Below are positions 4,906-42,021 of a stretch of 46,387 nt of DNA, piece after piece (position 1 is the first letter of the stretch; every line of letters begins with the position of its first letter). The notes beneath the pieces are model-generated. The model worked only from the letters and a program-made list of their open reading frames with translations. It was not told where the DNA came from and searched no databases. Both the position numbers and the translations under genes were made by a program. This DNA is from an uncultured Anaerolineales bacterium (GTDB lineage Bacteria > Chloroflexota > Anaerolineae > B4-G1 > SLSP01), in the NCBI GenBank assembly GCA_964452025.1, contig CAYVKR010000001.1, forward strand, positions 1 to 46,387, written 5' to 3'.

Positions 4906-5949
4906 TTAGAATTGTCGCAGGAAGCGCAGGTCGTTCCCGTAGTACATGCGAATGTCGTTCACGTCGTACTTCATCATGCTGGGACGCTCGACGCCGAAAC
5001 CGAAGGCGAAGCCGCTCCACTCGTCGGGATCGTAGCCGCCGTTCTCCAGCACGACGGGATGGACCATGCCCGCGCCGGCGATCTCCAGCCAGCCGGTGTA
5101 CTTGCAGACGCCGCAGCCCTCGCCGCCGCAGAGGATACAGTTGGTGTCCACCTCGATGCTGGGCTCGGTGAAGGGGAAGTAGGAGCTGCGGACGCGGATG
5201 TCCCGTCCCTTGCCGTAGAAGAGCTCGGCGAACTGGTGTACGGTACCGATGAGATCGGTGATGGCGATGTCGCGCCCGACGGCGAGACCCTCGACCTGGT
5301 AGAACTGATGCTCGCTGCGGGCCGTGATTTGCTCGTAGCGGTAGCACTTGCCGGGTAGGATCACGCGGATGGGCTCCGGCTCACCGGGGCCAGACGAGCG
5401 CTCGCGCATCACGCGGATCTGTCCCGGTGACGTGTGAGTGCGGAGCAGCCGCTGGTCGTCGACCCAGAAGGTGTCCCACATATCCCGCGCCGGATGGTAC
5501 GGTGGGATGTTGAGGAAGTCGAAGTTGTAGGTCTCCAGTTCCACGTCCGGCGCCTCGTAAACCTCGAAGCCCATGCGCCCGAAGATATCGTAGATCTGCC
5601 GCAGGGTCTGCGTGGTGAGGTGCAGGTGGCCCATTGGCGCAGGGCGACCGGGCAGCGTCACGTCGATGGCGCTTTCCGCCAGCTGTTTTTCCAGCTCCGC
5701 GTGCTTCAGCGTCTGAGTACGCGCGTCGTAGGCCGCTTCCAGCTCTTGCTTTATCTCGTTGACGCGCCGTCCGAACGCGGGTCTGTCCTCCGCAGGTAGT
5801 CCGCCGATCTTGCGCGTCTGCAAGGTGACTTTGCCCTTGCGTCCCAGGTAGGCCTTTTGCCACGCTTCAAGATCCTCCATGGTCTGGGTCTTACCCAGCG
5901 AGGATGCTGCTTCCTGGTGGACTTGTTCCAATTCCTCAAATGAATTCAT
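4906..5949 (-). CDS. pheS: phenylalanine--tRNA ligase alpha subunit
   Basis: 347 aa. Class II aaRS motifs including FPFTEPSIEVD and GFAFGFGVERPSMMKY. RBS gaaggagg upstream. Confidence 0.97.
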   Translation of the reverse strand: MNSFEELEQVHQEAASSLGKTQTMEDLEAWQKAYLGRKGKVTLQTRKIGGLPAEDRPAFGRRVNEIKQELEAAYDARTQTLKHAELEKQLAESAIDVTLPGRPAPMGHLHLTTQTLRQIYDIFGRMGFEVYEAPDVELETYNFDFLNIPPYHPARDMWDTFWVDDQRLLRTHTSPGQIRVMRERSSGPGEPEPIRVILPGKCYRYEQITARSEHQFYQVEGLAVGRDIAITDLIGTVHQFAELFYGKGRDIRVRSSYFPFTEPSIEVDTNCILCGGEGCGVCKYTGWLEIAGAGMVHPVVLENGGYDPDEWSGFAFGFGVERPSMMKYDVNDIRMYYGNDLRFLRQF

Positions 5950-9672: not shown

Positions 9673-9891
9673 CTAGTCTTTCTCGTGCAGGTAAGGAGCC
9701 AAGCGCTTGACACGCTTCTTGATTGACGGTTCCTTGACCACGTGCATTTCATCGAACTCACGTTTGACATCTTTGGGCTTTCTGCGCCGCAGGTGACTTT
9801 TGCCCTGACGTGTGCGCATCAGTTTGCCCTTACCGCCTTTCGAACGGCGGAAACGTTTTGCTGTCGCTTGGTGTGTTTTGATCTTTGGCAC
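9673..9891 (-). CDS. rpmI: 50S ribosomal protein L35
   Basis: 72 aa. (M)[33 protein letters not shown] is canonical L35. GTG start with GGAG 7 nt upstream. Confidence 0.95.
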
Positions 9892-10083
9892 TTAAGAACT
9901 CCTTTTTGACTTTGGTGAAAAAAGCCTGTTTACCGCAGAGAGCGCCAAGATAAAATTAATAGTTTGTTTAACTATTTTTATATTTCTCCGAATCTCACGA
10001 TAAAAAGTTATAGAAAACCTAAGACTCTCTGTGCCCTCTGCGTGCTCTGTGGTTAGATTGACCTTTTTTCAGGTCAGCCCTTT

Positions 10084-10641
10084 TTACTTTTTCGGGGCCA
10101 GAACCATCAGCATCGTTCGGCCATCCATCTCTGGCTTCTGTTCGATCTGCGCGATATCGTCCAATTCATCGACGACTTTTTGCATCTGTTCGAGCGCAAC
10201 CTCCGGGTAGGTGATCTCCCGGCCTCGGAATCGCACGCGAACTTTGACCTTGTTGCCATTTTCTAGCCAACGACGCGCGTCTCGAATCTTGAAAGAGAGA
10301 TGGTGATCGGTCGTTTTCGGCCTCAGACGGATCTCTTTGATCTCGATCTGCTTCTGGGATTTGCGTGCTTTGCGTTCCTTCTTTGATTGCTCGTACAGGA
10401 ACTTGCCGTAATCCATGATCCGGGTGACGGGTGGGTTGGCATTGGGTGCGACTTCCACCAAATCCATGCCTTTGTCTATGGCTGCTTGATAAGCGTCCTG
10501 GATGGCGACAACGCCGTGGTTGTTACCTTCCTCGTCAATTAAACGAACCTCGCGCGCCCGGATCTGTCGATTCACGCGGTACTTCGATGATGTGCTGATG
10601 ACAGCCCCCTTGTAACTTGACTTATAATGCCTTACAAACAT
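10084..10641 (-). CDS. infC: translation initiation factor IF-3 (5' end uncertain; a possible AUC start at 10599)
   Basis: RVNRQIRAREVRLIDEEGNNHGVV...MDYGKFLYEQSKKE...IRLRPKTTDHHLSFK is canonical IF-3. The listed ATG lacks an RBS and coincides with the predicted transcription start. AAGGGGG-N5-ATC occurs 14 codons downstream. Confidence 0.92.
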   Translation of the reverse strand: MFVRHYKSSYKGAVISTSSKYRVNRQIRAREVRLIDEEGNNHGVVAIQDAYQAAIDKGMDLVEVAPNANPPVTRIMDYGKFLYEQSKKERKARKSQKQIEIKEIRLRPKTTDHHLSFKIRDARRWLENGNKVKVRVRFRGREITYPEVALEQMQKVVDELDDIAQIEQKPEMDGRTMLMVLAPKK

Positions 10642-10645
10642 GGCT

Positions 10646-10673
10646 ATAATAACATGAGTCGAGGCAATGTCAA
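10646..10673 (-). promoter_or_regulatory. sigma70-type promoter upstream of infC
   Basis: Minus strand: TTGACA (10673-10668), 16-nt spacer, TATTAT (10651-10646). Confidence 0.45.
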
Positions 10674-10713
10674 CTATTGATGGGTTTATCTGGGACGCTC
10701 AACGTTCCCGCCT

Positions 10714-13611
10714 CTAACATCCGCCCTTTTGCAGCCAGCGCTTCAGATACTGCCCGGTATACGAGTGTTCGGCCTGGGCGATGTCTTCAGGCGTACCCTG
10801 GGCGACGATTTCTCCGCCTGCGTCGCCGCCTTCCGGCCCCAGGTCGATGATCCAGTCAGAGACTTTGATCACGTCAGGATTGTGTTCGATGACCACGACG
10901 GTGTCGCCGTCATCGGTTAATCGCTGCAGCACGTGGATCAGGCGATCTACGTCGGCGGCGTGCAGCCCCACTGTCGGCTCGTCCAGGATGTAGAGCGTGT
11001 GTCCGCGCGTCTGTTTGGAGAGCTCGCGCGAGAGTTTGATGCGCTGGGCCTCACCGCCGGAAAGCGTCGGCGAGGGCTGTCCCAGTCGAATGTATCCCAG
11101 GCCGACATCGTAGAGAGTCTGGAGGCGGCGCGTGATCTTAGGGATGGCGCTGAAGAAGTCCAAGGCCTCGGTGACGGTCATCTCCAGCACGTCAGCGATG
11201 TTCTTATCCTTGTAACGGATCTGGAGCGTCTCGCGGTTGTAACGCGCGCCGTGGCAGACGTCGCAGGGCACGTAGACTTCTGGCAGGAACTGCATCTCGA
11301 TGCGCAACGTCCCCTGTCCCTTGCAAGCCTCGCAGCGTCCGCCCTTGGTGTTGAAGGAAAAGCGGCCCTTGTCATAGCCGCGCAGTTTGGAGTCCGGCAG
11401 CTCGGCGAAGAGCTCGCGGATGGGCGTGAAGACGCCGGTGTAGGTACCGGGGTTCGAGCGCGGCGTTCGCCCGATGGGTGACTGGTCGATGTTGATGATC
11501 TTGTCCACGTGCTCCAGCCCGTCGAGGCCGTCCATGGCCCCTGCTGGATCGCGCGCGCCGTTGATGATCTGGGCCAGCCGCTTGTAGAGCGTCTCAACGA
11601 CCAGCGTGCTCTTGCCGGAGCCGGAGACGCCGGTGACGCAGGTGAAGAGGCCCAGCGGAAAGCGGACATCGAGGTGTTTGAGGTTGTGCTGGCGCGCGCC
11701 GTGCAGCACCAGCGCCTTGCCGTTGCCCGGACGGCGCTTTTCCGGCAGCGGAATGCACTTGCGCCCGGAGAGGTAAGCTCCCGTGATCGACGTGGGGTGC
11801 TCGATAATGGTCTCGGGCGGTCCCGCCGCGACGACTTCGCCGCCGTGCTCGCCGGCGCCGGGTCCCAGATCGACGATCCAGTCGGCGGTGCGGATGGTCT
11901 CCTCGTCGTGCTCGACCACGAGCACAGTGTTACCCAGATCGCGCATCTCCTTGAGCGTGCGCATGAGGCGGGCGGTGTCGCGTTGGTGCAGGCCGATACT
12001 GGGCTCGTCCAGCACGTAGAGCACACCGGTCAGCCGCGAGCCGACCTGCGTCGCCAGCCGGATGCGCTGCGCTTCGCCCCCGGAGAGGGTGTTAGCCGTG
12101 CGCTCGAGGCTCAGATAGTCGAGGCCCACATCGACCAGAAACGTGAGACGGCTGTGGATCTCCTTGAGCGCGCGCTCGCCGATGGCGTACTGCTTGGGCG
12201 TGAGCTTGCCGTCGTTGATCAACGCCTCGATCCAGGTCCGCAATTGGGCTACCGGCCACTTGTTGAGAGCGTGGATGGGCTCGCCGGCCAGTTTGACGGC
12301 GCGGGCCACGGCGTTGAGCCGGGTGCCGTGGCAATCCTTGCAGGGCGTGTGACTCATCACCTCTTCGATCTTGCCGCGCATGTAGTCGGAACTGGTCTCT
12401 TCGTACCGACGGGAGAGGTTGGGGATGATGCCCTCATAGGCACGGTTGCCTTCCCAGACGCCGTTGGGACTTTCGTAGCGCATGCGAATGCGCTCTCGCC
12501 CGGTTCCGTGCAGGATAACCTCGCGCTGATCAGGGGATAGCTCGCGCCAGGGATCGTCCATATCCACTCCGTAGTGTTCGGCGACGGTCTGGAGCCGTTT
12601 GAAGGTGTAGCTGGTCTTGTCCTCGGAGACGCCGAAAGCGATGGCGCCCTCGTTGAGCGAGCGGTCGGGGTTGGGCACGATGAGGTCGGGGTCCAGTTCC
12701 ATCTTGTAGCCCAGGCCCTGGCAGGTCTCACAGGCGCCGTGGGGACTGTTGAAGGAGAAGGAGCGCGGCTCAATCTCCGGCAGACTGATGCCGCAGATGG
12801 GGCAGGCCAGGTTCTCCGAGAAGAGCACGTCGCCGGTTGGCCGGGCCTCCGGGTCCGGGGCGCGGACCACGTCGATGATGAGGATGCCGTCGCCCAGCCG
12901 GAGCGCCGTCTCCACGGAATCGGTCACGCGGCTGACGAAGTCGCGATAAACGTCTTCGGGCGTCTCCTCGGGCTCAGGGATGATCAGGCGGTCGACGACG
13001 GCCTCGATATCATGCAGCTTGTAGCGGTCGAGCTCGGGGATCTCCTCGAGCTCATAGACCTCGCCATCGACGCGCACGCGGATAAAGCCCAGCTTGCGCA
13101 CTTCATCGAAGATGGTCTCGTGATGCCCTTTGCGTCCCCGCACCAACGGCGAGAGCACCTGCAACCGGGTGTTGCTGGGCATCTCCAGCACAGCGTCGAC
13201 GATCTCCTGAGCGCTCTGCTGGGTCACCGGACGCCCGCACTGCGGGCAGTGGGGCACGCCGATGCGGGCGTAGAGCAGGCGCAGATAATCGTAGATCTCC
13301 GTCACCGTGCCCACCGTCGAGCGTGGGTTGTGCGAGACGCCCTTCTGGTCGATGGCGATAGCCGGGCTGAGCCCGTCGATGGTCTCGACGTGCGGCTTGT
13401 TCATCTGACCGAGAAACTGTCGGGCATAAGAGCTAAGCGATTCGATATACCGACGCTGTCCCTCAGCGAAAATCGTATCGAAGGCCAGGGACGATTTCCC
13501 TGAGCCTGAAAGACCGGTGATGACGACCAGTTTGTTTTTCGGTATCTCGACCGTGATATTCTTGAGGTTGTGTTGTTGCGCACCTCTTACAATCAGTTTG
13601 TCACTTGGCAT
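10714..13611 (-). CDS. uvrA: excinuclease ABC subunit A
   Basis: 965 aa. [50 protein letters not shown], two ABC modules and zinc-finger Cys clusters. Unambiguous UvrA. Confidence 0.98.
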
Positions 13612-13638
13612 CTTCTATCCCTTTCTGTGCAACTGCCT

Positions 13639-13647
13639 ATTATAACA
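13639..13647 (-). promoter_or_regulatory. extended -10 element TGTTATAAT upstream of uvrA
   Basis: The minus strand reads catgTGTTATAATagg, about 28 nt upstream of the uvrA ATG. The same 9-mer recurs at 27795 and 34072. Confidence 0.4.
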
Positions 13648-13690
13648 TGGTTCAGAAGAAAAGAGTAAAACATCCGTTCTATTTTGTTGG

Positions 13691-13718
13691 TTGCGACTTT
13701 CCTTTGATCGGTTATGAT
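13691..13718 (+). promoter_or_regulatory. sigma70-type promoter for the secreted-protein gene set
   Basis: TTGCGA (13691-13696), 16-nt spacer, TATGAT (13713-13718). Lies 38 nt before the ATG at 13756. Confidence 0.45.
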
Positions 13719-13755
13719 TACGGATGGAGAGCGTAGGTGACGATACATCTAGCGC

Positions 13756-14373
13756 ATGAAAGGAGAGCTTTTGCGACGTCGAAATCTTCTTGGGGGGATG
13801 AGTGTGGCGCTTGCCATCTGGGTGGCGTTAAGTCTGCTGCCGGTGACGTGGGCCAGACCGGAGCAGAACGAAGATCGGCAGACGGTACCGACGCGCACGC
13901 CCAGTCCGCTGCCGACGACGGAGGAGCCACCGACGGAAGAGCCGCCGACAGAGGAGCCGCCTCCGCCGGCAACGGAAGCGCCCGAAGCGACGGCTACGCC
14001 TACCTCTACGCCAGCGGACGCTACGACGTCAACGCCCACCTCGTTGCCGCCCACCGCCTCGCCTTCCCTCACCGCTACGGAAGACATGACCGTCCCTGTC
14101 ACGGTGACGCCTTCCCCTTCTTCCCCACCCACGGAGACGGCAACTACAACGCCGAGCGCGACGACTGCTGCCATGTCGAGTCCTACGTCAACCGTTGAGC
14201 CACTCTTTGCTACTGAGACCACAGAACCCCCTGCGATTGCCGAGACGCCATCCGAGGACGTCACCGCAGAGCCGAGGCGGCGCCTCTCCCCGTTGCTGCT
14301 GGGCGGAGGTCTGTTGCTCTTGTTGGGACTGACTATGCTGCTGGTAGGTCGAAGGTTTTCGAGCGAAGAGTAG
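13756..14373 (+). CDS. secreted Pro/Thr/Ser-rich (mucin-like) protein with C-terminal membrane anchor
   Basis: N-terminal signal LRRRNLLGGMSVALAIWVALSLLPVTWA. About 150 aa of PT-rich low-complexity sequence including a triple EEPPT repeat. C-terminal LLLGGGLLLLLGLTMLLVGRRF. Confidence 0.7.
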   Translation: MKGELLRRRNLLGGMSVALAIWVALSLLPVTWARPEQNEDRQTVPTRTPSPLPTTEEPPTEEPPTEEPPPPATEAPEATATPTSTPADATTSTPTSLPPTASPSLTATEDMTVPVTVTPSPSSPPTETATTTPSATTAAMSSPTSTVEPLFATETTEPPAIAETPSEDVTAEPRRRLSPLLLGGGLLLLLGLTMLLVGRRFSSEE

Positions 14374-14401
14374 CCGGCTATTGGAGGCTGGCGAGGAGGG
14401 C

Positions 14402-15505
14402 ATGATGAGGTGGAGGCGCATGGGGTTAGCTGTTGTTGGGGCTTTGTTGGGTTTGGTGTTGATGGGGCAGGCGACCGGCATTAGAGCAGATGACGCTTCA
14501 CAACCTTTTACCACGAACATGGCGGGCACAGGCTACGTCTATTTATTCGACTCGGAGAATGAGGAGTTTATCTTCACGTTTACGCTACCTATGCTGGATG
14601 CAAATCCCCGGGACGTTGACGTGGTGACACAAGGCAGCGTGCAAGAAGTGTGGTTCACGGAACCGGGCGCGGATCGCATCGGGCGGCTGGTCTACACGGA
14701 TACGGAGCACACGTCCTATCAGGCGTATGACGTTGGCCCCGGCTGTTCTCCGTTGAATCTAGAGGTTGATGGGCAGTGGGTCTGGTTCACGGCGCCGGGA
14801 TGCGATCAAATCGGGCGGCTCTCTCGACAGACCCAGAGCACGGACACCTTCGACATCACGCCTGCCGGCACGTATCCTGCCGACCTCGCAATTGCCGGCG
14901 ACGGCAGTGTCTGGTTCACGCAGATGCAGGCGGATCAGCTGGCGCATCTTGTGGTCACGTCCACTGTGGACTATCAGTTAACGACGTATCAAGACGATTT
15001 GCTGGATGGCGGTCGGCCCTATGGCATTGCCTTGGCGCAACAAGGTGTGTACATCGCCCAGACAATGAACGATAAGGTCTCCAAGTACACGCCAGCAACC
15101 GGCTTGTGGCTCAACGTCTCATTACCTGGCATGGATAATCTAGAGAATCCCTATAAATTGACAGTTGGGAATGAAGGTGCTGTATGGGGAACAGAGATGT
15201 CAGGTAACCGCGTTACCCGGTTTACGTATGGGACGTTTGCCGTTCTCGCCTCTTATGATTTGGAGCCGGCAGGTAGTTCGCCGATGGCGTTGGCAGCAGG
15301 TGCTGCCGATCAGCTGTGGTTTACGCAGTGGGGCGCCGGTCAGATTGGACGCTTAGCAACTAAGGCTGAAACTCTATCCTATTATCCTCTGCCCATGGAT
15401 AGGCTGGCGCCTTCTGGTGTTGTTGTGGAAGATCAGAATGTCTGGGTTGTGGCTACGAAACCGTACGTTGTCTATCTTCCGCTGACTGTTCGTTTTTGGG
15501 GGTAG
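14402..15505 (+). CDS. secreted beta-propeller protein, Vgb (streptogramin lyase)-like repeats
   Basis: Repeated blades: VWFTEPGADRIGRL, VWFTAPGCDQIGRL, VWFTQMQADQLAHL, VWGTEMSGNRVTRF, LWFTQWGAGQIGRL. Signal peptide MMRWRRMGLAVVGALLGLVLMG. Start moved to the ATG behind gaggaggg. Confidence 0.8.
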   Translation: MMRWRRMGLAVVGALLGLVLMGQATGIRADDASQPFTTNMAGTGYVYLFDSENEEFIFTFTLPMLDANPRDVDVVTQGSVQEVWFTEPGADRIGRLVYTDTEHTSYQAYDVGPGCSPLNLEVDGQWVWFTAPGCDQIGRLSRQTQSTDTFDITPAGTYPADLAIAGDGSVWFTQMQADQLAHLVVTSTVDYQLTTYQDDLLDGGRPYGIALAQQGVYIAQTMNDKVSKYTPATGLWLNVSLPGMDNLENPYKLTVGNEGAVWGTEMSGNRVTRFTYGTFAVLASYDLEPAGSSPMALAAGAADQLWFTQWGAGQIGRLATKAETLSYYPLPMDRLAPSGVVVEDQNVWVVATKPYVVYLPLTVRFWG

Positions 15506-15506
15506 G

Positions 15507-16955
15507 ATGTTGAACATAGAATCAAAAAGTATATTGTTGGGGGTCATACTCCTTCTAGTGAGTGTATGGGGTTTGGGGATACTCAACTCTCAACAGACAT
15601 TGGATTTGGCACTGGCAAAGTCTTCTTCGGAAGAATCTCTGTTGCGCGTTACCGACGCTATGACGCACACGACCTATCTACCGTTGGTCAACAGATTTTG
15701 GAACTCAAGCGTGCCACCCTTTGGCATTCAGTTCTACGGCACGCTAAGTGATAATCGAGGGTTGACAGAGATTGCGGAGGTTGGGGTTCGCTGGGTGCGC
15801 ATGCCGCTCAGCTGGGCTAGCATCGAGCGAGAGAACACCACGCCAGAAGAGTACGATTGGAGTAGGTTGGATACGTCGGTGATTCGCGCCGAGGAACGGA
15901 ACCTGCAGTTGATTTTGACCATCGCTGGTCAGCCCTCGTGGGCGGCGGAGTATGCCATGGGACCGGTATATGATGTTGAGGACATCAAGGAATTCGTCGG
16001 CGCGCTGGTCTCTCGCTACGATGGGACGACGCCAGGAGTGCCCGAAGTTCTTTACTTCGAGCTTTACAATGAGCCCGACAACGCGGATTTGGGCCATGCT
16101 GCCCACGGTGGCTGGGGCTATTGGGGATTGAACGGAGATGGCTACGCGGCGTTGCTCCGCGATCTATATCCGGTGGTCAAGGCAGCCAATCCTGACGCGC
16201 AGCTTGTCTTCGGTGGGATGGCCATGGACTGGTTCATTCGAGACGGCGGCCCTTTCGATGAGAATTTTCTTGAGGATGTGCTGGCGGTATGCCAGGGGCA
16301 CGATTGCTTCGACGTGATGAACTTTCACTACTATCCGGTTTTTCGCTGGGATGAGTACGGACCTGGCATCATGGGGAAAGCGACGTACATCCGGCAGATG
16401 ATGGATCAGTATGGTTTTGTTGACGAACCCATTATCTGCACCGAGATGGGGTGGGATAGCGAGGCCAGTTGGGGCAGCACCGAGCTTCAGAGTCGCTATC
16501 CGGCGATCGGGTATATTCGGTCTATGGCGGCGGACCTGCCTGTGGTGATTTGGTTTTCGTTGATTGACCTGGACGGTTACGGATATTCTGGACTTCTGGA
16601 CGGTGACTACCAGATCAAGCCATCCTATGGGGCTTATCAGACGATGACGGAGATGTTGGGCTACGCTCGCTATCAACGCCCCCTGACTTTGGCGGAGAAA
16701 GGGTCCGACCAGATCGAAGGCTACGTCTTCGAGGTCTCGTCTGGTCGCATGGACGTGGTGTGGACGGTCGATGACACTCGTTTCGAGGCTGCTGATGATC
16801 CTGTGCTCGACTTCGAAGTCCGGGCCGAGACGCTGCGTGTCGTCGACAAATATGGTGGGGAGATGCTCTATTCTGATGCTGACGATGGACAAAACGACGG
16901 TCGGATCACCCTAAAGGTGGAGGGCAGCCCCCAGTATCTGGTCTATAACCCATGA
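15507..16955 (+). CDS. secreted clan GH-A (TIM-barrel, GH5/GH39-like) glycoside hydrolase
   Basis: Acid/base motif FELYNEPD and nucleophile motif ICTEMGW. N-terminal TM/signal segment ILLGVILLLVSVWGLGIL. Confidence 0.82.
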   Translation: MLNIESKSILLGVILLLVSVWGLGILNSQQTLDLALAKSSSEESLLRVTDAMTHTTYLPLVNRFWNSSVPPFGIQFYGTLSDNRGLTEIAEVGVRWVRMPLSWASIERENTTPEEYDWSRLDTSVIRAEERNLQLILTIAGQPSWAAEYAMGPVYDVEDIKEFVGALVSRYDGTTPGVPEVLYFELYNEPDNADLGHAAHGGWGYWGLNGDGYAALLRDLYPVVKAANPDAQLVFGGMAMDWFIRDGGPFDENFLEDVLAVCQGHDCFDVMNFHYYPVFRWDEYGPGIMGKATYIRQMMDQYGFVDEPIICTEMGWDSEASWGSTELQSRYPAIGYIRSMAADLPVVIWFSLIDLDGYGYSGLLDGDYQIKPSYGAYQTMTEMLGYARYQRPLTLAEKGSDQIEGYVFEVSSGRMDVVWTVDDTRFEAADDPVLDFEVRAETLRVVDKYGGEMLYSDADDGQNDGRITLKVEGSPQYLVYNP

Positions 16956-18502
16956 CACAACAGACGCATAAGTGGTTGAAAGCGAGTCGACGGCTTCTGG
17001 TCGTGTTTGCGTTTCTCGGCGTCTCGATTCTGAGTTGGTTCTTGATGCGGCGGCCTTTGGAAAGCAGGTCGGTTGTGGTAGATGGCGTAGAGCGATCTGG
17101 AGCAGAGCGTGTTGCTTTAGCGGCGACAGAGACCTATACGCACTGTCGCTTCGGATTTGGCGCTACGGGAACGGGCGGGCCTCCCTCACAGTATGATGTG
17201 GCGTCACTCAATGCCGGGTGGTATTGGGATTGGGGGGCGCGTGCAACGCCCTCTTTATCCTCTGTGGAGCACGTACAGACCATTCGTCTGTCGCCGACGC
17301 CCACCGGTTATTCAGCATCGCCCACCGGGACGAAGTTGCTCTCCATCGCGTCCGCGCGTCCGGGTGCCCGTTGGTTTATCGGTAACGAGCCGGATTGTAT
17401 CTGGCAGGACAATATGCGCTCTGATCTCTATGCACAGGCCTATCATGACCTCTACTACCTTATCAAAGGGGCTGATCCAACGGCGCAGATCGGTGTGGGC
17501 TCTATCGTGCAGCCTACGCCCCAGCGCATGCGTTACCTGGATCGCATTTTGGCGGCGTATGTTGAACGCTATGGTGAGCCACTGCCTACGGATTTCTGGG
17601 TCACGCACAGTTATATTTTGTGCGAGACATGTTTTGTCAAAGGCTACGAACCTTGGGGTTGGGGGGCCTGTCCCGTACCAGATTGGCCTGATCCCAATGA
17701 CCCGCCGGATGAGGCAGTACACTATTCGCTCGAAGATCACTGGCGCCTCGATATCTTCCAGCAGCGACTTATTGATTTCCGGCGTTGGATGCGAGATCGT
17801 GGTTATCGGGACGTGCCTTTGCTCGTCTCGGAGTACGGTATCCTGTTCTATTATCCCTTTGAGCAGGGAGATCTCTATAAAACCGAGGATGACGCCATTG
17901 CGTTCATGCAAGGCACCTTCGATTGGATGCGGGAGGCGCGCGATTCTGAGTTAGGCTATCCGGCTGATGACAATCGTCTGGTGCAGCGCTGGGCGTGGTT
18001 CAGTCTGGATCACATCGACTGGGAGATGGGTGGGGCGCTCTTCGACAACGAGACCTATCAGCCCTTCAAAATCGGCTTGGCTTACGCGGAGTACACCGCC
18101 GATCTTTCGCCCGTCGTCGACCTCGTCGCCGTGGACGTGCGTCAGACCGCGCCGACGCCCTACTCGCCGACGCAGCCGGTCTCCGTGACCTTGGACGTTC
18201 AGGTCTCCAACGCGGGCAACGTGCCGCTGACGGCGCCGTTCACCGTGAGATTCCTGGATGCAGCGGGATCCCCCATAGCTGAGGACCAAGTGGTCGCCTC
18301 AACGCTGAGCGGTTGTGGCGCAACGGTGAGCTTGCACGTTGTCTACCCAAATCTGGAGCCGGGGGCGTACCCGGTGCGCGTGGTCGTCGATCCCGAAGGC
18401 GAGATCGCAGAAGCCGATGAGCAGAACAACGAGACGACCGGAACGGTATTGGTGGCAACAAACCGGCTCTTTCTACCTCTGGTGCGACAGGAGATCTGGT
18501 AG
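16952..18502 (+). CDS. secreted glycosyl-hydrolase-catalytic-core-like protein with C-terminal CARDB-like domain
   Basis: WFIGNEPD and LLVSEYGIL motifs (clan GH-A style). C-terminus VQVSNAGNVPL...VVVDPEGEIAEADEQNNETTG resembles CARDB. The ATGA start overlaps the upstream stop. Confidence 0.78.
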   Translation: MTQQTHKWLKASRRLLVVFAFLGVSILSWFLMRRPLESRSVVVDGVERSGAERVALAATETYTHCRFGFGATGTGGPPSQYDVASLNAGWYWDWGARATPSLSSVEHVQTIRLSPTPTGYSASPTGTKLLSIASARPGARWFIGNEPDCIWQDNMRSDLYAQAYHDLYYLIKGADPTAQIGVGSIVQPTPQRMRYLDRILAAYVERYGEPLPTDFWVTHSYILCETCFVKGYEPWGWGACPVPDWPDPNDPPDEAVHYSLEDHWRLDIFQQRLIDFRRWMRDRGYRDVPLLVSEYGILFYYPFEQGDLYKTEDDAIAFMQGTFDWMREARDSELGYPADDNRLVQRWAWFSLDHIDWEMGGALFDNETYQPFKIGLAYAEYTADLSPVVDLVAVDVRQTAPTPYSPTQPVSVTLDVQVSNAGNVPLTAPFTVRFLDAAGSPIAEDQVVASTLSGCGATVSLHVVYPNLEPGAYPVRVVVDPEGEIAEADEQNNETTGTVLVATNRLFLPLVRQEIW

Positions 18503-18637: not shown

Positions 18638-19852
18638 ATGAGTGTTGTCATCTCTATTGAGCATCTCTCCAAGGAATTCGTTCTTAAGCAAGCCGCACCG
18701 CGCTCGTTTCAAGAACTCGTGGTTGACCTGTTGAGACGAAAAACGCACTCCCAGGTGGAGCGCTTTGTGGCGCTTGACGATGTCAGTCTAGAGATTGAGC
18801 AGGGCGAAACCGTGGGGCTGATCGGGCCCAATGGCGCGGGGAAGAGCACGCTGCTCAAGCTGGTGGCCGGCATTATCGAGCCTACCAGCGGCAACGTACA
18901 GATCTACGGAAGAGTGGGGGCCCTCTTGGAGCTCGGCGCCGGCTTTCATCCCGATCTGACGGGACGTGAGAACATCTACCTCAACGGGTCCATCCTGGGT
19001 CTATCTCGAGCTGAAATTCAGGACAAAATGGACGATATCATCTCCTTTGCCGAGCTGGAGCGCTTCATCGATGCGCCGGTGCGTCATTATTCCTCGGGCA
19101 TGTACGTGCGTCTGGGCTTTTCCGTGGCAGTGCACACGGAGCCGCAAATTCTCTTGGTGGATGAGGTGTTGGCCGTTGGCGACGCAGCCTTTCAGCGCAA
19201 ATGTATGGATAAAATCGACGACATGCGCAGGGCTGGCGTGACCATCCTCTTCGTCTCTCACAGCGCTGAACTTGTACGCAAGATCTGCAAGCGCGCCGTA
19301 TGGTTGGACGCGGGGCGCTGTGTGGCCGATGGTGCAGCGGAGTCGGTGGCGGCGCGGTATCTGGATCACTCGTGGGCGCAGGAGCAAACCCAAGTCGTCT
19401 CTGAAGAGGAGCGACGGTGGGGAAACGGCAAGGTGCGCATCACCGACGTGCGATTATTGGGCGGCGAGGGAAAAGAGCAGCAACGTTTTCGCACGGGAGA
19501 GCCGATGACCGTGGAGATGCACTACGTGGCAAAGGAGCGGATCGAACAACCGGTCTTCGGACTGGCGATTCATCGGAGCGACGGGACCCACATCACCGGG
19601 CCGAATACGCAATTCGCCGGGCACGAGATCCCGTGGATCGCGGGGGAAGGAGCAGTCCGGTACACTATTCCCTTCTTGCCGTTACTCGAAGGGCGCTATT
19701 TTATCTCGGTAGCGGCCCACAATTGGGAAGACACAGAAATGTACGACTATCGGGATCGAGAGTACACGTTTCGGATGTTACCCAGTGAGAACCAGGGATA
19801 TGGTATAGTGACGCTGAGAGGAGGATGGTTCTGGAGCGGACAAACGTCTTAA
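18638..19852 (+). CDS. polysaccharide-export ABC transporter ATP-binding protein (Wzt/TagH type) with C-terminal Wzt-C-like carbohydrate-binding domain
   Basis: Walker A GPNGAGKST, signature YSSGMYVRLGF, Walker B ILLVDEVLAVGD. The GALLELGAGFHPDLTGRENIYLNG block is typical of Wzt/TagH. An extra beta-rich tail of about 150 aa (VRITDVRLLG...YFISVAAHN). Confidence 0.92.
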   Translation: MSVVISIEHLSKEFVLKQAAPRSFQELVVDLLRRKTHSQVERFVALDDVSLEIEQGETVGLIGPNGAGKSTLLKLVAGIIEPTSGNVQIYGRVGALLELGAGFHPDLTGRENIYLNGSILGLSRAEIQDKMDDIISFAELERFIDAPVRHYSSGMYVRLGFSVAVHTEPQILLVDEVLAVGDAAFQRKCMDKIDDMRRAGVTILFVSHSAELVRKICKRAVWLDAGRCVADGAAESVAARYLDHSWAQEQTQVVSEEERRWGNGKVRITDVRLLGGEGKEQQRFRTGEPMTVEMHYVAKERIEQPVFGLAIHRSDGTHITGPNTQFAGHEIPWIAGEGAVRYTIPFLPLLEGRYFISVAAHNWEDTEMYDYRDREYTFRMLPSENQGYGIVTLRGGWFWSGQTS

Positions 19853-21219
19853 TTATCAGTCATGATGTGGTTGGGAAGCGGATGGCCGGACCTGGCATCC
19901 GTTATTATCACTTAGCCCGCGTTTTAGGTCAAGAGTTTGAGACAGTGTTGGCTGTGCCCTCAGAAATCTCACCTGACATCTCTCCTGAAGGTTTTCGTTT
20001 TACTTCCTATACACGACGCGATTGGGATTCTATTGCCACGTGGGTAGCTGCAGCAGATACGGTGATCTTTCCCAGTGACATCGCCAGTGATTTCCCTTTA
20101 CTGGCCCAGAGTGGCACTTTTTTGGTCGTCGACGGATACGATCCCTTGTTAGCCGAATGGTTATCCCTGAGTCAAGGGGAACCCCTGGAGAATTGGGAAC
20201 GGTACTGGTGGGATCGGATGTGCTCCTTAAACGAACAGTATCTGATGGGTGATTTTTTCATCTGCGCTAGTGAACGTCAGCGTGACTGGTGGTTGGGTTT
20301 ACTAGAAGCGAATGGCCGTATTAACCCCTACACGTTCAAAGGGGATCCCTCGTTGAGATCTCTAATCGACGTGGTGCCTTATGGCTTGCGGGACGTGGCT
20401 CCGCAAAGCACTGAGCCGGTGATCAAAGGGGTCTGGTCAGGGATTGAGCCTGAGGATAAGGTCATCTTGTGGGGTGGAGGGCTGTGGCCGTGGCTAGACC
20501 CCCTGACGGCTATCCGGGCCGTGGAATCTGTCAGGCAGCAGCGGCGTGACGTGCGTTTGGTCTTTCCTGGTACGAAACATCCGAATCCCTGGATGGAGGA
20601 AACACCGACGCACACCGATTCTGCTCGCGCATTAGCTCGGGAGAAAGGCCTATTGGGGAGGGCCGTCTTTTTTGGTGACTGGATACCCTATGAAGATTGG
20701 CCCAATGTGTTGTTGGAGAGTGATCTTGCTCTTTCCCTGCACTACGACACGTTGGAAACCCGGCTCGCTTTTCGCAGTCGAGTGCTGGATTACATTTGGG
20801 CGGGGCTGCCCGTGGTGGCGACAAAAGGCGATGCGACCAGCGATCTCATTTCCAACCATCACCTTGGCGCTGTGGTCGACTTCGAAGCTGTTGGGGGTGT
20901 TTCCGCAGCTATTCTGCAGCTCCTGGAAAAGCCTCGTGCTGAGTTTGATAAGCGGTTTGAAGAGGTGCGAAAAACGTTGACGTGGAGGGAGACAGCACGT
21001 CCGTTGTTGAATTTCTGCCGGCATCCTCATCGTGCAGCAGACAAGGCAGCACTGGGTGAAGATCTTGGTAGCCCCTTTTATACTGCAAAGATTCAGCAGA
21101 TCGTTGCTGAGTGGGAATATTGGCGTGAGCTGACACGGCAATATGAGCAAGGTCGGTTTATGCGTTTCATGCGCTGGATGGAGCGGATGCGGCGAAAATA
21201 TCTGGAGAAAGATGGATGA
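19825..21219 (+). CDS. glycosyltransferase (GT-B fold, GT4-like)
   Basis: N-terminal VLIISHDVVGKRMAGPGIRY. C-terminal half VILWGGGLWPWLDP...VRLVFPGTKHPN...DLALSLHYDTLETRLAFRSRVLDYIWAGLPVVATKGD. The exact start is uncertain (28-nt overlap with the ABC gene). Confidence 0.8.
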   Translation: MVLERTNVLIISHDVVGKRMAGPGIRYYHLARVLGQEFETVLAVPSEISPDISPEGFRFTSYTRRDWDSIATWVAAADTVIFPSDIASDFPLLAQSGTFLVVDGYDPLLAEWLSLSQGEPLENWERYWWDRMCSLNEQYLMGDFFICASERQRDWWLGLLEANGRINPYTFKGDPSLRSLIDVVPYGLRDVAPQSTEPVIKGVWSGIEPEDKVILWGGGLWPWLDPLTAIRAVESVRQQRRDVRLVFPGTKHPNPWMEETPTHTDSARALAREKGLLGRAVFFGDWIPYEDWPNVLLESDLALSLHYDTLETRLAFRSRVLDYIWAGLPVVATKGDATSDLISNHHLGAVVDFEAVGGVSAAILQLLEKPRAEFDKRFEEVRKTLTWRETARPLLNFCRHPHRAADKAALGEDLGSPFYTAKIQQIVAEWEYWRELTRQYEQGRFMRFMRWMERMRRKYLEKDG

Positions 21220-22532
21220 AGGCCTCGATTATCATCCCGGTTTGGAACGGACGGGAGTATCTACGCGACTGCCTTGATGCGGTGCTGGCCCAGGATTATC
21301 CAGACTTTGAGGTTATCGCTGTGGATAATGCGTCCACGGACGGTTCTGCCGATTTTGTGGCGGAGCAGTATCCCGACGTGCGCTTGATCCTGTACGAAGA
21401 AAACCGGGGATTCGCAAAGGCGTGTAACGCCGGTTTGTGCTCTGCGTCTGGCGAAGTCCTTATCTTACTTAACCAGGACACGGAAGTCCAACTTGGCTGG
21501 CTGACTGCGTTGATCAAGGTACTGAGATCTGACCCACAGGTGGGCATTGTGGGGGGCAAGGCTTTGTATCCCGATGGGCGTATTCAACATGCAGGCGGGC
21601 ATATTGATATGCGCGGCGCGGGTGTGCACTATGGACACGGCGACGTCGACATGGGTCAGCATGATCAGCGTCGGGAGGTCGATTACGTCACCGGCGCAGG
21701 CCTGGCTATCACGCGGCAGGCCTATGACCTCATAGGCCCATTGGATGAAGGGTTTTCTCCTGCCTATTATGAGGACGTAGATTGGTGTTATCGTGCGTCG
21801 GAAGTGGGATTTCGTGTCGTCTATGTGCCCCAGGCGGTGATGATCCACGAGGAGACGAGTTCGCTTGCCCGTCCCCATTCCTATGAGGGCATGTACTTGC
21901 CCCAACGCAATCGACTGCGCTTTGTTTTGAAACATTGGCCAACAGATCGATTGCTGGATGAATTTTTACCTCATGAGACTGCTTGGCTCCAGACGTTGGA
22001 TGAGGGTGGTGAACGACTTGTCGCCGTGATGCACCGTGTCTATCTCTTTCATCTGCTGCATCTACAGTCAACGTTGAGGGCACGGGCAGCACGATATGGG
22101 AGCGCGATGGAGGACGTTGACCCCATCGCCCACGTGCTCTTGACGTTGCGGGCGGTGACGCCCCTACGTCCTGCGCGATTGTTTGACGAATCGCCGGATC
22201 AGCCTGCTGCACAGACCGCGCTTCTTCGCCGTCTTCACGAAGGATGGTCTATTGAGCCACGGCCCTTTCAATCCGACGTGCCTGTTATCGGACCACTTAT
22301 CGTCTTTTTCCGTCGTCAGTGGAACCGTGTTGCAACGGAGTGGTATGTTCGCCCCATGATTCAGCAGCAAGTCGAGTTCAACGCCGAAGTGGTGACCATG
22401 CTCAAGCAGTTGCACCGCGACTATCAGAGGTTGGCTGAAGTTCTGGCGGAATATCTTCGCGAGGATGGCCGAGAGATTGCGGAGTTGGGCCAGGCGATTC
22501 AAGATCTGGCTGTCTCAATGGAGAAAGATTAG
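21216..22532 (+). CDS. GT2 family glycosyltransferase with ~95-aa C-terminal helical/coiled-coil module
   Basis: SIIIPVWNGREYLRDCLDAVLAQDYPDFEVIAVDNASTDGS, a DxD-equivalent in LLNQDTE, and YYEDVDWCYR. The C-terminal tail is described in the findings. Confidence 0.9.
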   Translation: MKASIIIPVWNGREYLRDCLDAVLAQDYPDFEVIAVDNASTDGSADFVAEQYPDVRLILYEENRGFAKACNAGLCSASGEVLILLNQDTEVQLGWLTALIKVLRSDPQVGIVGGKALYPDGRIQHAGGHIDMRGAGVHYGHGDVDMGQHDQRREVDYVTGAGLAITRQAYDLIGPLDEGFSPAYYEDVDWCYRASEVGFRVVYVPQAVMIHEETSSLARPHSYEGMYLPQRNRLRFVLKHWPTDRLLDEFLPHETAWLQTLDEGGERLVAVMHRVYLFHLLHLQSTLRARAARYGSAMEDVDPIAHVLLTLRAVTPLRPARLFDESPDQPAAQTALLRRLHEGWSIEPRPFQSDVPVIGPLIVFFRRQWNRVATEWYVRPMIQQQVEFNAEVVTMLKQLHRDYQRLAEVLAEYLREDGREIAELGQAIQDLAVSMEKD

Positions 22533-26651: not shown

Positions 26652-27527
26652 ATGATGACGTACCATAAAGTTTCTACAGACACGACGGTCATCTTCTTGC
26701 ACATCCAGAAGACCGCAGGGACGACGTTACACCGCATCATCGAGCGATACTACACGCCGGAGGAGATCTATTTCTTCGACGCGCACACGTATACGTATGA
26801 GCATTTCTCGAGTTTGAGTGCAGCAGAGCGGGCAAACATCCGCATGCTCCGGGGCCACATGGTCTTTGGACCGCATGAGCTGTTGCCGCAACCGACGACC
26901 TACTTCACCGTACTGCGCGATCCCATCGAACGTGTGGTCTCGCACTATTACCACGTCCGGCGTGACGCCAATCACTGTTATCATGATTTCCTGATCTCAA
27001 ACGAGATGGATCTAAAAGCCTACGTCGAAAGTGGTATTCATCGGGGAATGAGCGATTTTCAGACGCGAGTGTTGGCCGGCGGCAAGTGGCACAATGCACC
27101 CTATGGGAAGTGTCCAGAGGAAGCATTGGAGGCTGCGAAGGAAAACTTTCGAAAACACTTTGCCGTAGTCGGCTTGATGGAGCGGTTCGATGAGACGTTG
27201 TTTTTTCTTAGACGGGCCTTCGGCTGGCGAGACATCTTCTACGTCCCTCGGAACGTGAGTCGCCGCCGACCGAGCAAGCATGAGCTCGCGCCTGAAACGC
27301 TAGAGGCTATTGTCAACGTCAATCGTGTTGACGTTAAACTGTATGCCCATGTGAAGGAGCAATTTGATCAGAACGTTCGCCGACTCGGCCCTGCATTTGC
27401 AGGAAAAGTTCGGGTATTTCGAATAGTCAACCGTTGGTTTGGTCCCTTTCTGTATGGAGAAGGCAAGGCGCAAACAGGATGGGTACGAGATAAAATCCGG
27501 CGCGGGGTCCATTGGATGGTTTCGTAG
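26652..27527 (+). CDS. carbohydrate sulfotransferase-like protein (Sulfotransfer_2/HS6ST-like)
   Basis: 5'-PSB-like FLHIQKTAGTTLHRII and 3'-PB-like YFTVLRDPIERVVSHYYH, as in heparan-sulfate 6-O-sulfotransferase-type enzymes. Confidence 0.85.
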   Translation: MMTYHKVSTDTTVIFLHIQKTAGTTLHRIIERYYTPEEIYFFDAHTYTYEHFSSLSAAERANIRMLRGHMVFGPHELLPQPTTYFTVLRDPIERVVSHYYHVRRDANHCYHDFLISNEMDLKAYVESGIHRGMSDFQTRVLAGGKWHNAPYGKCPEEALEAAKENFRKHFAVVGLMERFDETLFFLRRAFGWRDIFYVPRNVSRRRPSKHELAPETLEAIVNVNRVDVKLYAHVKEQFDQNVRRLGPAFAGKVRVFRIVNRWFGPFLYGEGKAQTGWVRDKIRRGVHWMVS

Positions 27528-33872: not shown

Positions 33873-34071
33873 GCCACGGGACCTCTGGGCCAGGGCAGGG
33901 ACCTTTACCCAAAAACGGCCCTCCGCTCGAAATAATGCGGAAAAGAATGCCATTTTGGTCCACCTGGCCAAATACAAAGATTATTTTCACCTGAGTCTTT
34001 AATGCAAGGAGCCTTGTCTCGACTCAGATTAGAATATCCCACCAAATTCCTATATACAAATAGCCGCTGTG

Positions 34072-34080
34072 TGTTATAAT
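34072..34080 (+). promoter_or_regulatory. extended -10 promoter element TGTTATAAT
   Basis: Exact TGnTATAAT. It overlaps the first codons of the longest ORF form, which argues for a downstream start of the FG-GAP gene. Confidence 0.4.
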
Positions 34081-34137
34081 ATAGTTAGAGCGTGGCTGGC
34101 GGTTATGAAGAGGATAGACAACTTGGATGAGGTGGGT

Positions 34138-36126
34138 ATGTTAAAACTAGGGCGGATATGGCGATCAGTTGGTCTATTAGCGCTTTGTGGTCTTCTGCTA
34201 GGCCTCACATTTCCAGAGGGTGATCTTGTGAAAGCTGAGTGGAACGTTAATCCTCAGTTTACCCCTGGTTTTCCAGTGCATCTGGCAGGGGCATCTATCT
34301 ACGAGAGTTCTCCTACGTTGGTAGACTTGAACGGAGATGGTCAACTTGATATTGTGGTGGGTGGGGTAGGACAGAATGCCTGTCGCGGTCGCTTGTATGC
34401 AGTGAGCGGGTCAGGGCAGGTCTTGTGGGATATTCAGACGCGCGCGCCCATCAACTCGACGCCAGCAGTTGATGATATTGACCTTGATGGTGTGCTAGAG
34501 GTCGTGGTGGGGATGGGTACCAATAGCAGCAAGAATTGTGCCCATGGTGGCGTCCTTGCGGTGGACGGGTTGTCTGGGACAAAGGAGTGGGCGTTCGACA
34601 CGCAGGACTGGCTCAACCATACGCAAAACGGCTATTTGGACCCCGTATTCTCTTCTCCGACCATCGCTGACTTCGATAATGATGGGGATAAGGAGATTAC
34701 CTTTGGCAGCTGGGATCAGTGTGTTTATCTTATTGACCATAATGGCATGCCGCTCTGGCCCGATCTCACAGGTATTGAAGGCCAGCGTCATTGTGGGGGG
34801 CACGGTTTCTACAACGAGGATACCATCTGGTCGTCACCTGCTGTGGGCGATTTGAACGGTGATGGGGTTCTGGAGATTATCATTGGTGCCGACATCTCAA
34901 CCGGCAATCGCAATGGAGATCCCCCGGGCGGCTATCTCTATGTTTTGGATATAGAGGGCAATGTCCTCGCTCGCGAGTGGTTCAATCAGACCATCTATTC
35001 TTCGCCTGCCGTAGGGGATCTGGACGACGACGGTGTGCTCGAAATCGTGGTGGGCACAGGTGGCTGGTTGGAGGGTGCGGGGTACTACGTGACGGCCTGG
35101 AACTTTGTGGGCTGTAACGATCCTCGATCTGCACTGGTGGAGAAATACCATTGGTCCACAAACGGTCGCGCCTTTGGCTCACCGGCTTTAGCGGATCTAA
35201 ACGGAAACGGTGGCTTGGACGTGATTACTATTGCCAACGTGGGCGATGGCCCCTGGACAGGAGGATGCGACAACGGCAGTCAGGTCTGGGCTTGGGATGG
35301 CAAGACGGGAGAGAATCTGTTCAAGACCATGGCCTGCGATACGTTTGGCAATGCGTTTAACGTTCATGCTTCTCCCTCCGTAGCTGATATTGATGGTGAT
35401 GGATTCCTGGAGATCTTGTATAGTCATGCCTGGGAAGTCAGCATTCTTAATCATGATGGGACCTACTACACGGATTACTCATCTCACTCAGTCAATAATT
35501 ATGCATGTGCACAGACGACACCCCCCACAACGAATTTGACCTTCTGGGCCAATTGGAATGTCTTTGGAACGCCGGCTGTGGGAGATCTGAACGGCGACGG
35601 CAATTTGGATGTGGTCATTGGTGGGGGAAAGGACAAAGACAACGACGTTGCAACACTCTATGCTTGGAGTCCAGGTGACACCGGAGTCGCAGCGCCTTGG
35701 CCTATGTTCCGAAAGGACGCCAAACATACCGGCTACTCTGAACTCTCCCCTCGTTTGGTTGTCATGCCAGATTCAATTACTCTGTATCATGATATAGACT
35801 CTTCTGAGAGTCGCCTGAATGTAGACTTCCAGATTGTGAATGCTGGCGATGGCGGATTTAGCTGTACCGTTGGGGTGCCTGATCAAGTATCTCTCATGCA
35901 ACAGATGGACCTAATAGAGCCAAACACGGTCGTATCCCTAAGCGTTTTTGTGGACGGCTACTCTGAGGGGATGCATGATCTTGGAGATATTCGTGTGACG
36001 TGTTCCAATGAGAACGGTGAGGTGAAAGACAGCCCGAAGTCAATCCCGTTGCGCTTGTACTATGGGAAAGTGGGGCGAGTATATCTACCCTTGTCCCTAA
36101 ATGTCTGTGCCATGTCAGATCAGTAA
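34138..36126 (+). CDS. secreted FG-GAP/VCBS-repeat (integrin-alpha-like beta-propeller) protein
   Basis: At least 8 repeats of the form SSP[AT][VI][GA]D[LI][ND]GDG.L[ED][IV][VI].G. Signal peptide MLKLGRIWRSVGLLALCGLLLGL behind RBS gaggtggg. Confidence 0.85.
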   Translation: MLKLGRIWRSVGLLALCGLLLGLTFPEGDLVKAEWNVNPQFTPGFPVHLAGASIYESSPTLVDLNGDGQLDIVVGGVGQNACRGRLYAVSGSGQVLWDIQTRAPINSTPAVDDIDLDGVLEVVVGMGTNSSKNCAHGGVLAVDGLSGTKEWAFDTQDWLNHTQNGYLDPVFSSPTIADFDNDGDKEITFGSWDQCVYLIDHNGMPLWPDLTGIEGQRHCGGHGFYNEDTIWSSPAVGDLNGDGVLEIIIGADISTGNRNGDPPGGYLYVLDIEGNVLAREWFNQTIYSSPAVGDLDDDGVLEIVVGTGGWLEGAGYYVTAWNFVGCNDPRSALVEKYHWSTNGRAFGSPALADLNGNGGLDVITIANVGDGPWTGGCDNGSQVWAWDGKTGENLFKTMACDTFGNAFNVHASPSVADIDGDGFLEILYSHAWEVSILNHDGTYYTDYSSHSVNNYACAQTTPPTTNLTFWANWNVFGTPAVGDLNGDGNLDVVIGGGKDKDNDVATLYAWSPGDTGVAAPWPMFRKDAKHTGYSELSPRLVVMPDSITLYHDIDSSESRLNVDFQIVNAGDGGFSCTVGVPDQVSLMQQMDLIEPNTVVSLSVFVDGYSEGMHDLGDIRVTCSNENGEVKDSPKSIPLRLYYGKVGRVYLPLSLNVCAMSDQ

Positions 36127-41944: not shown

Positions 41945-42021
41945 ATCTCACATGATTCTTGACCGCGTTTTTTGGCTAATGCAACATTGGAGCAGTGCTG
42001 CAATTAACAGGGAGATACTTC

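Follow-up and report, generated by a model that had tools for sequence, protein, structure and literature searches.

Four exported proteins encoded in a 46,387-nucleotide stretch of DNA from an uncultured Anaerolineales bacterium (assembly GCA_964452025.1, contig CAYVKR010000001.1; the whole stretch is hereafter called the window) carry a short motif around a Leu-Pro core which, to judge by sequence, is in each case a copy of the YLP-box, a motif already known as a curated database model. The box is a strongly selected, lineage-restricted, fold-independent tag on Sec-exported proteins of Anaerolineae-type Chloroflexota. It is probably an extracytoplasmic tag without a transmembrane helix that is recognised by another molecule, for which we infer both a sorting function and a partner; the sorting or processing role is putative here, as it is in the NCBIfam database.

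A six-frame regular-expression scan, read against the lists of open reading frames (ORFs), placed the core motif [YF]LPL at the end of three ORFs and in the N-proximal part of a fourth: at 15473-15484, with the stop six codons downstream (Vgb-like); at 15675-15686, encoding residues 57-60 (GH5-like); at 18470-18481, again six codons before the stop (GH_cc/CARDB); and at 36082-36093, ten codons before the stop (FG-GAP). The four sites named in the initial annotation were thus all recovered, its start for the first of them (15474) being one base off. The carriers, all on the + strand, account for 4 of the 41 genes of the window. They are an exported Vgb-lyase-like beta-propeller (14381..15505; Pfam PF24684 Vgb_lyase, E=2e-41); a GH5-like, cellulase-family glycoside hydrolase with an N-terminal membrane helix (15507..16955; Pfam PF00150, E=5.9e-07); an exported protein with a Glyco_hydro_cc-like catalytic core and a CARDB domain (16952..18502; Pfam PF11790 and PF07705); and an exported FG-GAP beta-propeller with a C-terminal Ig-like domain (34069..36126; Pfam PF13517 and PF01839). 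By comparison with the 99%-identical protein P0001, the Vgb-like protein likely starts in truth at the MRWRR codon (about 14405); the FG-GAP protein likely starts at MLKLGR, about 34138.

The copy at the Vgb-like C-terminus is divergent and reads VVYLPLTVRFWG up to the stop (15467..15502, +); the N-proximal GH5-like copy is TTYLPLVNRFW, residues 55-65, in the context THTTYLPLVNRFWNSS (15669..15701, +); the GH_cc/CARDB protein ends in RLFLPLVRQEIW (18464..18499, +); and the FG-GAP protein ends in RVYLPLSLNVCAMSDQ, a copy that is degenerate past LPL and has a 10-residue tail (36076..36123, +). A hydrophobic N-terminal segment was present in the ORF translations of all four carriers, in agreement with the signal sequences that had been claimed for them. 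The motif had also been placed within 8-15 residues of a terminus, a description that fits the three C-terminal copies near their stops and fails for the GH5-like copy at residue 57, which comes after a membrane helix and a disordered spacer of ~30 residues. [YF]LPL also occurs within two cytoplasmic proteins of the window, the Wzt ATPase (at 19673) and a glycosyltransferase (at 37665), but the NCBIfam YLP models match neither of these sites.

To the knowledge of the initial annotation, no signal of this form had been described. This has to be corrected, as NCBIfam (release 20) catalogues the motif in two models with the same tentative sorting reading as the initial annotation, NF050076.1 ("sort_motif_YLP") and NF053834.1 ("ultrashort_CTERM"), both labelled "YLP-box putative sorting motif-containing protein". 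The former has 11 positions and a cutoff of 15 bits, the latter 10 positions and a cutoff of 10 bits. Because the models are so short, full-length scans of the four window proteins missed them and gave no sorting-signal match in NCBIfam or Pfam; they surfaced when a small metagenome carrier protein, itself a match to the YLP models, was scanned, and then segments of 20-30 residues. The GH5-like box reached the cutoff of NF050076 (15.5 bits) and did not match NF053834, and the GH_cc/CARDB box exceeded that of NF053834 (14.4 bits) and fell just short of NF050076 (14.7 bits against 15). The tail of P0001, the close relative of the Vgb-like protein, scored 13.0 bits with NF050076, under the cutoff of 15. 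At E<=0.1, NF050076 recognised 29 of 99 Vgb-family tails and NF053834 18 of 99, and neither YLP model appears in the family lists of 100 control C-termini, which came from other phyla. On grounds of homology, we treat the Vgb-like and FG-GAP boxes as diverged copies: tails of Vgb-like orthologues match the models, and FG-GAP homologues end in the canonical RVYLPxxLR. Three window copies bear out the extreme C-terminal position expressed in the name "ultrashort_CTERM", lying 6-10 residues from the stop; the fourth, in the GH5-like protein, is N-proximal. The NCBIfam models give a name and a cutoff alone, and the N-proximal and interdomain copies are unlike a purely C-terminal reading of the motif. 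What we add is the conservation of the N-proximal copy across the GH5-like family, the interdomain placements, the usual limit of one box per polypeptide, the tight spacing to the folded domain, and a conserved three-gene module that carries the box.

All four families hold the box at the same position in their homologues. Nearly all Chloroflexota members of the Vgb-like family, down to about 26% identity, end in [RK][VI][YHF]LP[LIV][VIT]x[RK]x(0-4) (115 homologues), and Vgb homologues of other phyla lack the terminal box. In a 42-sequence alignment P367 of the Vgb-like protein is one of just ten invariant columns and L366 is at least 90% conserved; both alignments of the family, A1 and A2, show this proline as invariant. 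Among 42 homologues of the GH5-like protein P59 is invariant and L58 at least 90% conserved, and the region upstream of the box (membrane helix and spacer) is unconserved and varies in length. Nearly all of these homologues hold the box or a variant of it, those that fail the strict regular expression showing YVPLV, YLPSV or YIPLI. In the Vgb-like and GH5-like alignments the proline of the L-P core is conserved on a par with core residues. The strict C-terminal motif was found in 75 of 120 GH_cc/CARDB homologues and the relaxed one in 87 of 120, and the motif is kept even in homologues with a different C-terminal domain. In the FG-GAP family, the best 150 representatives gave 32 strict and 17 further relaxed matches, and those homologues in which the C-terminal Ig-like domain is shared have LYVGxVxR[VT][YF]LPxxxR as their ending.

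In the AlphaFold2 models the box lies outside the fold, whether it stands at the C-terminus (Vgb-like) or near the N-terminus (GH5-like). The Vgb-like model (mean predicted local distance difference test score, pLDDT, of 90.7) shows a helix at residues 8-28 ahead of the propeller (51-359); residues 360-374 are modelled as coil with a pLDDT of about 78-80, so that the box lies in a coil tail of 10-16 residues immediately past the last propeller strand. The GH5-like model (mean pLDDT 88.7) has a helix at 5-26, disorder at 23-57 and a folded domain from about residue 72, with the box at the border of the disordered spacer and the TIM barrel, about 13 residues ahead of the first barrel strand.

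The Vgb-like propeller and the GH5-like hydrolase form a module with a box in each gene, which we observed in the window (14381-18502), in locus L001 of an Anaerolineales metagenome-assembled genome (MAG) (9749-14075) and in locus L031 (8309-12405); the GH_cc/CARDB gene completes it in the window and in L001. In L001 the syntenic three-gene module is kept at about 33% identity with the box at the matching place in each gene: the Vgb-like protein ends in SLPVVLR, the GH5-like protein has FLPLVSN at residue 55, and the GH_cc protein ends in LLPLVMR. Three Vgb+GH5 fusion proteins of about 790 residues (P0148, P0159 and P0200) have a single box, at the junction.

Beyond these families, metagenome contigs were scanned for DNA encoding VYLPLV[LM]R, with 126 matches among at least 120 loci listed. 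All 126 fall in an open reading frame, and together they use all synonymous codons. Where a stop was found, it lay 0-4 codons past the Arg in 96 of 124 matches and within 7 codons in 99 of 124, the box Arg being the last residue of the protein in 13. The extended consensus of these matches has Y/H/F at -2 and R/K at -1, then VYLPLV[LM]R, N, Y/H/F, P/R and the stop (Y at -2 in 38/120, R/K at -1 in 51/120, R at position 8). The overall consensus of the box, over about 8-12 residues, is [YHF]-[RK]-[VI]-[YFH]-L-P-[LIV]-[VIT]-[LMV]-[RK]-[N]-[YHF]. By a crude hydrophobicity test 56 of the 75 complete metagenome carriers have an N-terminal signal-like segment, and the rest mostly look like over-extended starts. 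The carriers are mutually unrelated, including propellers, CARDB, beta-helix (ending DIGADE), PKD-like, Calx-beta, pre-peptidase (PPC) and FN3-like proteins, and range from proteins of 1000-2000 residues to a small fibre-associated family of ~95 residues.

Almost always there is one box per polypeptide. Non-terminal boxes either follow an N-terminal anchor and linker or stand between domains, typically then with a Pro-rich linker after them (e.g. RNYTPP); a few non-terminal matches resemble chance occurrences in non-secreted ORFs. In one protein (L084) the box is followed, 25 residues further, by a true C-terminal membrane helix with an RR end. The box is carried by 16 of 468 (3.4%) non-seed ORFs flanking the listed matches versus 4 of 1168 in control loci; the latter came from a profile search of genome contigs with the Vgb-like alignment, whose listed matches are mostly distant homologues from other phyla, and one of the four box ORFs in them comes from a Chloroflexia MAG. 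The named sources of carriers are Anaerolineae, Anaerolineales, Ardenticatenaceae, Promineifilaceae, "Chloroflexi bacterium", an Anaerolineales MAG and that one Chloroflexia MAG. We also noted a contig of 5705 bp (L102) with three boxes (458-480, 3029-3051 and 5516-5538), in three tandem paralogous genes each ending in WVYLPLVLR[GN]AP, two of them complete with about 810-830 residues.

That the motif of the window is real and far beyond chance is confirmed. Each of the 41 window proteins was shuffled 20,000 times and the motif sought in the last 16 residues: the shuffles gave a mean of 0.0215 proteins with a terminal motif and a maximum of 2, and the observed 3 was never reached. Since the four window sites use differing synonymous codons, the copies are not a DNA repeat, and an origin from a DNA repeat or a terminator is excluded by the codon differences among the window copies and among the metagenome copies. 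An explanation by chance, by compositional bias or by a repeated DNA element overlapping gene ends could point to a core of just 4 residues and to the two extra copies in cytoplasmic proteins of the window; it is refuted by the shuffles (0 of 20,000 matched the observed count), by the differing codons, and by homologues at 25-50% identity that keep the box. The enrichment checks that had been proposed along with the motif came out strongly positive, in the shuffles, the homologue tails, the metagenome matches and the flanking ORFs.

As to how the box may act, we propose that the protein carrying it would be exported via Sec, leaving the box exposed outside the cytoplasm, that a shared partner, either a receptor or scaffold of the envelope or a processing or transfer enzyme, would bind the exposed box, and that the protein would as a result be retained, positioned or processed at the cell surface. 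In the Vgb-like, GH_cc/CARDB and FG-GAP families the box lies 4-7 residues past the last structural element of the domain, and recognition would therefore probably take place on the unfolded or just-emerged chain, at the Sec translocon, or flat against the surface of the domain. Several observations weigh against this proposal. No candidate for a partner enzyme or receptor was found among 599 clustered flanking ORFs, whose recurrent clusters were compared with Pfam and NCBIfam; the genes that recur next to box genes encode fibre-like proteins, ABC transporters and glycosyltransferases. To our knowledge, all characterised bacterial systems that sort by a C-terminal signal of the sortase or exosortase type depend on a membrane-spanning segment in the substrate, and the box has none. 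With just 0-4 residues left after the box, it is not obvious what cleavage would serve. Nor is the box strictly terminal, as seen in the interdomain copies and the Vgb+GH5 fusions, and about a fifth of the listed metagenome matches are not terminal. Finally, neither NF050076 nor NF053834 was reported to match the Vgb-like and FG-GAP boxes of the window, and the literature library searched contained no paper and no experiment on the YLP-box.

The lack of a partner gene in the neighbourhoods of box genes would be expected if the box were a self-sufficient peripheral anchor, with the proline-kinked V-Y-L-P-L-V-L segment wedging into the outer membrane leaflet, or into a hydrophobic sheath or polymer, and with Arg/Lys and aromatic residues bracketing the hydrophobic core; cell association would then require no enzyme or receptor. 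The flanks are indeed symmetrical (Y and R/K upstream; R, N and Y/H/F downstream), a function independent of position would suit the C-terminal, N-proximal and interdomain placements, and in L084 a true C-terminal membrane helix comes 25 residues after the box. However, seven hydrophobic residues have only a weak membrane affinity, a generic wedge would have no need of an invariant L-P or of one fixed register in families that are unrelated, and the N-proximal boxes come at the end of a long linker that sets them well apart from the membrane anchor, so that we consider this explanation unlikely.

The Vgb+GH5 fusions bear on a different possibility, namely that the box is a proteolytic maturation site and nothing else, at which a dedicated protease would cut to free domains from N-terminal anchors and to split fused domains, C-terminal boxes being vestiges or short propeptides. 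Cleavage would yield the same products from the split arrangement of the window (Vgb-box and stop, then anchor-spacer-box-GH5) and from the fused Vgb-box-GH5 proteins P0148, P0159 and P0200, and interdomain boxes are followed by Pro-rich linkers. Yet about 77% of the listed boxes lie 0-4 residues from the stop, with 13 of 124 ending at the R, where cutting would be pointless, and it is these that are best conserved; moreover, a polypeptide almost always has a single box and not one per domain boundary. A maturation site alone is thus quite improbable. The short distance to the fold could instead mean that the box is an intrinsic structural cap or linker, a Pro-containing, charge-flanked strand that shields the edge strands of beta-rich secreted domains and involves neither a partner nor sorting. 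The carriers are mostly beta-rich (propellers, Ig-like domains, beta-helices), the box lies just 4-7 residues past the last strand, and the pLDDT of the Vgb-like tail is moderate, about 78. Against a cap, the same consensus appears after unrelated folds and ahead of a TIM barrel, AlphaFold2 models the box as coil rather than strand, the box follows a "choice-of-anchor" domain, and it is limited to one bacterial lineage, the same domains in other phyla having no box; we give this explanation very little credence. Within our preferred reading of the box as a tag recognised by another molecule, it is possible, and we suggest it only tentatively, that Anaerolineae-type Chloroflexota have a machinery of their own for sorting or attachment, which reads the box without any membrane-spanning substrate segment and independently of its position (C-terminal, N-proximal or interdomain). 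If true, such machinery would place proteins on the envelope of a mostly uncultured lineage by a new mechanism.

The four box carriers lie beside or within a surface-glycan biosynthesis cluster, and are therefore plausibly enzymes of the envelope or matrix. This surface-polysaccharide cluster spans 18638-45970 of the window and includes a Wzt-type ABC ATPase with a Wzt_C domain (18638-19852), two sulfotransferase-family genes (26652-27527 and 31706-32581), a DegT aminotransferase (41995-43203), a methyltransferase (43985-44815) and many GT4 glycosyltransferases, a gene content that suggests a sulfated glycan. There is no obvious Wzm permease gene adjoining wzt in the window. Two further + strand genes of the cluster (38850-41270, with a weak DUF1616 match alone, and 41279-41944) encode exported proteins with lipoprotein-like N-termini (LLGCSS and LSDCKY, respectively). 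Both proteins are without a YLP-box, thus not every exported protein of the cluster bears the tag. The region 21219-22465, between glycosyltransferase genes, holds short minus-strand ORFs alone (21730-22212 and 22164-22502), of doubtful coding quality.

Immediately upstream of the Vgb-like gene, a + strand gene (13756-14373) encodes a protein of 205 residues with a signal peptide and a low-complexity body rich in Pro, Thr and Glu, which ends in a membrane helix and an RR tail (PRRRLSPLLLGGGLLLLLGLTMLLVGRRFSSEE) and has no family match in Pfam or NCBIfam. Its ending may be a different, classical tripartite C-terminal anchor, and resembles the membrane helix and RR end that come after the box in the L084 protein. 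A gene of 200 residues occupies the equivalent place in locus L201.

Among the metagenome carriers we also observed a secreted family of ~92-100 residues (L112 1412-1696, L145 1975-2253, L190 2205-2489, and further members in L139, L117, L127 and L161) with the pattern GGYxLxGTIGQP followed by GFWGGxxxxYxVYLPLVLRN at the C-terminus. These genes are always found downstream of a larger secreted fibre-like gene whose product ends in GIIxMLVMLQ or in GVSLRVGHHPMY, and a protein that combines a Peptidase_S74 chaperone domain with a C-terminal membrane anchor is encoded nearby (L148 1021-2877). The small proteins and their fibre-like neighbours may form a fibre or pilus-like surface structure. The small proteins weakly match PamT, a pilus tip pilin of the Candidate Phyla Radiation (preprint 10.64898/2026.03.03.709456), with a score of 33 bits against a cutoff of 240; because the match is limited to the signal peptide and the Gly-rich N-terminus, it is not taken as evidence of donor-strand assembly.

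Sediments, sludge and mats harbour abundant Anaerolineae-type Chloroflexota, and little is understood of the envelope of these bacteria or of the way in which they display proteins on it. A sizeable share of the proteins that they export appears to bear the YLP-box. It therefore offers a flag for exported surface and matrix proteins in metagenome-assembled genomes that are rich in "hypothetical" genes, and it defines a set of substrates with which a partner can be sought by phylogenetic profiling. If that partner were an enzyme able to do without a membrane-anchored substrate, it would represent a new sorting principle and a possible tool for protein ligation or display.

Among known systems, the LPXTG signals of sortases resemble the box in being found on Sec-exported surface proteins, in their usually C-terminal place, in a conserved L-P core, and in a beta-branched residue two positions past it (T in LPXTG; V, I or T in the box). 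Unlike them, the box lacks Gly at position 5 as well as a membrane helix and a basic tail, is typically followed by just 0-4 residues, stands 4-7 residues from the folded domain, and can be N-proximal or internal. The window ORFs and the 680 kb of flanking DNA from the metagenome showed no sortase TLxTC signature, the sole regular-expression match being in a cytoplasmic glycosyltransferase. The signals of PEP-CTERM/exosortase, GlyGly-CTERM/rhombosortase, PGF-CTERM/archaeosortase and MYXO-CTERM are, like the box, lineage-restricted C-terminal tags on unrelated secreted proteins, show the same order of signature, hydrophobic residues and basic residue(s), and take the same slot after "choice-of-anchor" domains. 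One carrier has the box directly after the "choice-of-anchor Q" domain NF041518, so named as it precedes alternative C-terminal anchors in other phyla (PEP-CTERM, LPXTG or type IX secretion signals). Signals of the PEP-CTERM class, however, have a full membrane helix of ~18-20 residues that is read by an intramembrane enzyme, whereas the box has 3-4 hydrophobic residues past the proline and is unable to span a membrane; NCBIfam scans of the window proteins and metagenome carriers gave no match to PEP-CTERM, GlyGly-CTERM or PGF-CTERM models. The initial annotation had already set the motif apart from LPXTG, PEP-CTERM and GlyGly-CTERM by the absence of a following transmembrane helix, and this is borne out, as only 0-10 residues come after the box, with no hydrophobic stretch. 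Because it has no membrane helix, the box cannot work like the signals of sortases or exosortases.

The C-terminal domain (CTD) of the type IX secretion system is another C-terminal signal on signal-peptide proteins, among them beta-helix and choice-of-anchor proteins; it is a folded beta-sandwich of about 80-100 residues in the diderm Bacteroidota, whereas the box is a coil of 8-12 residues. An analogy in principle is offered by the eukaryotic ultrashort terminal signals KDEL, PTS1 -SKL and the CaaX box, which are unrelated in sequence, compartment and lineage, and for which the extreme C-terminus is obligatory, whereas the YLP-box tolerates tails and internal sites. In these signals 3-4 C-terminal residues can be enough, given a dedicated receptor or enzyme to read them, an analogy that supports recognition of the YLP-box by a partner.

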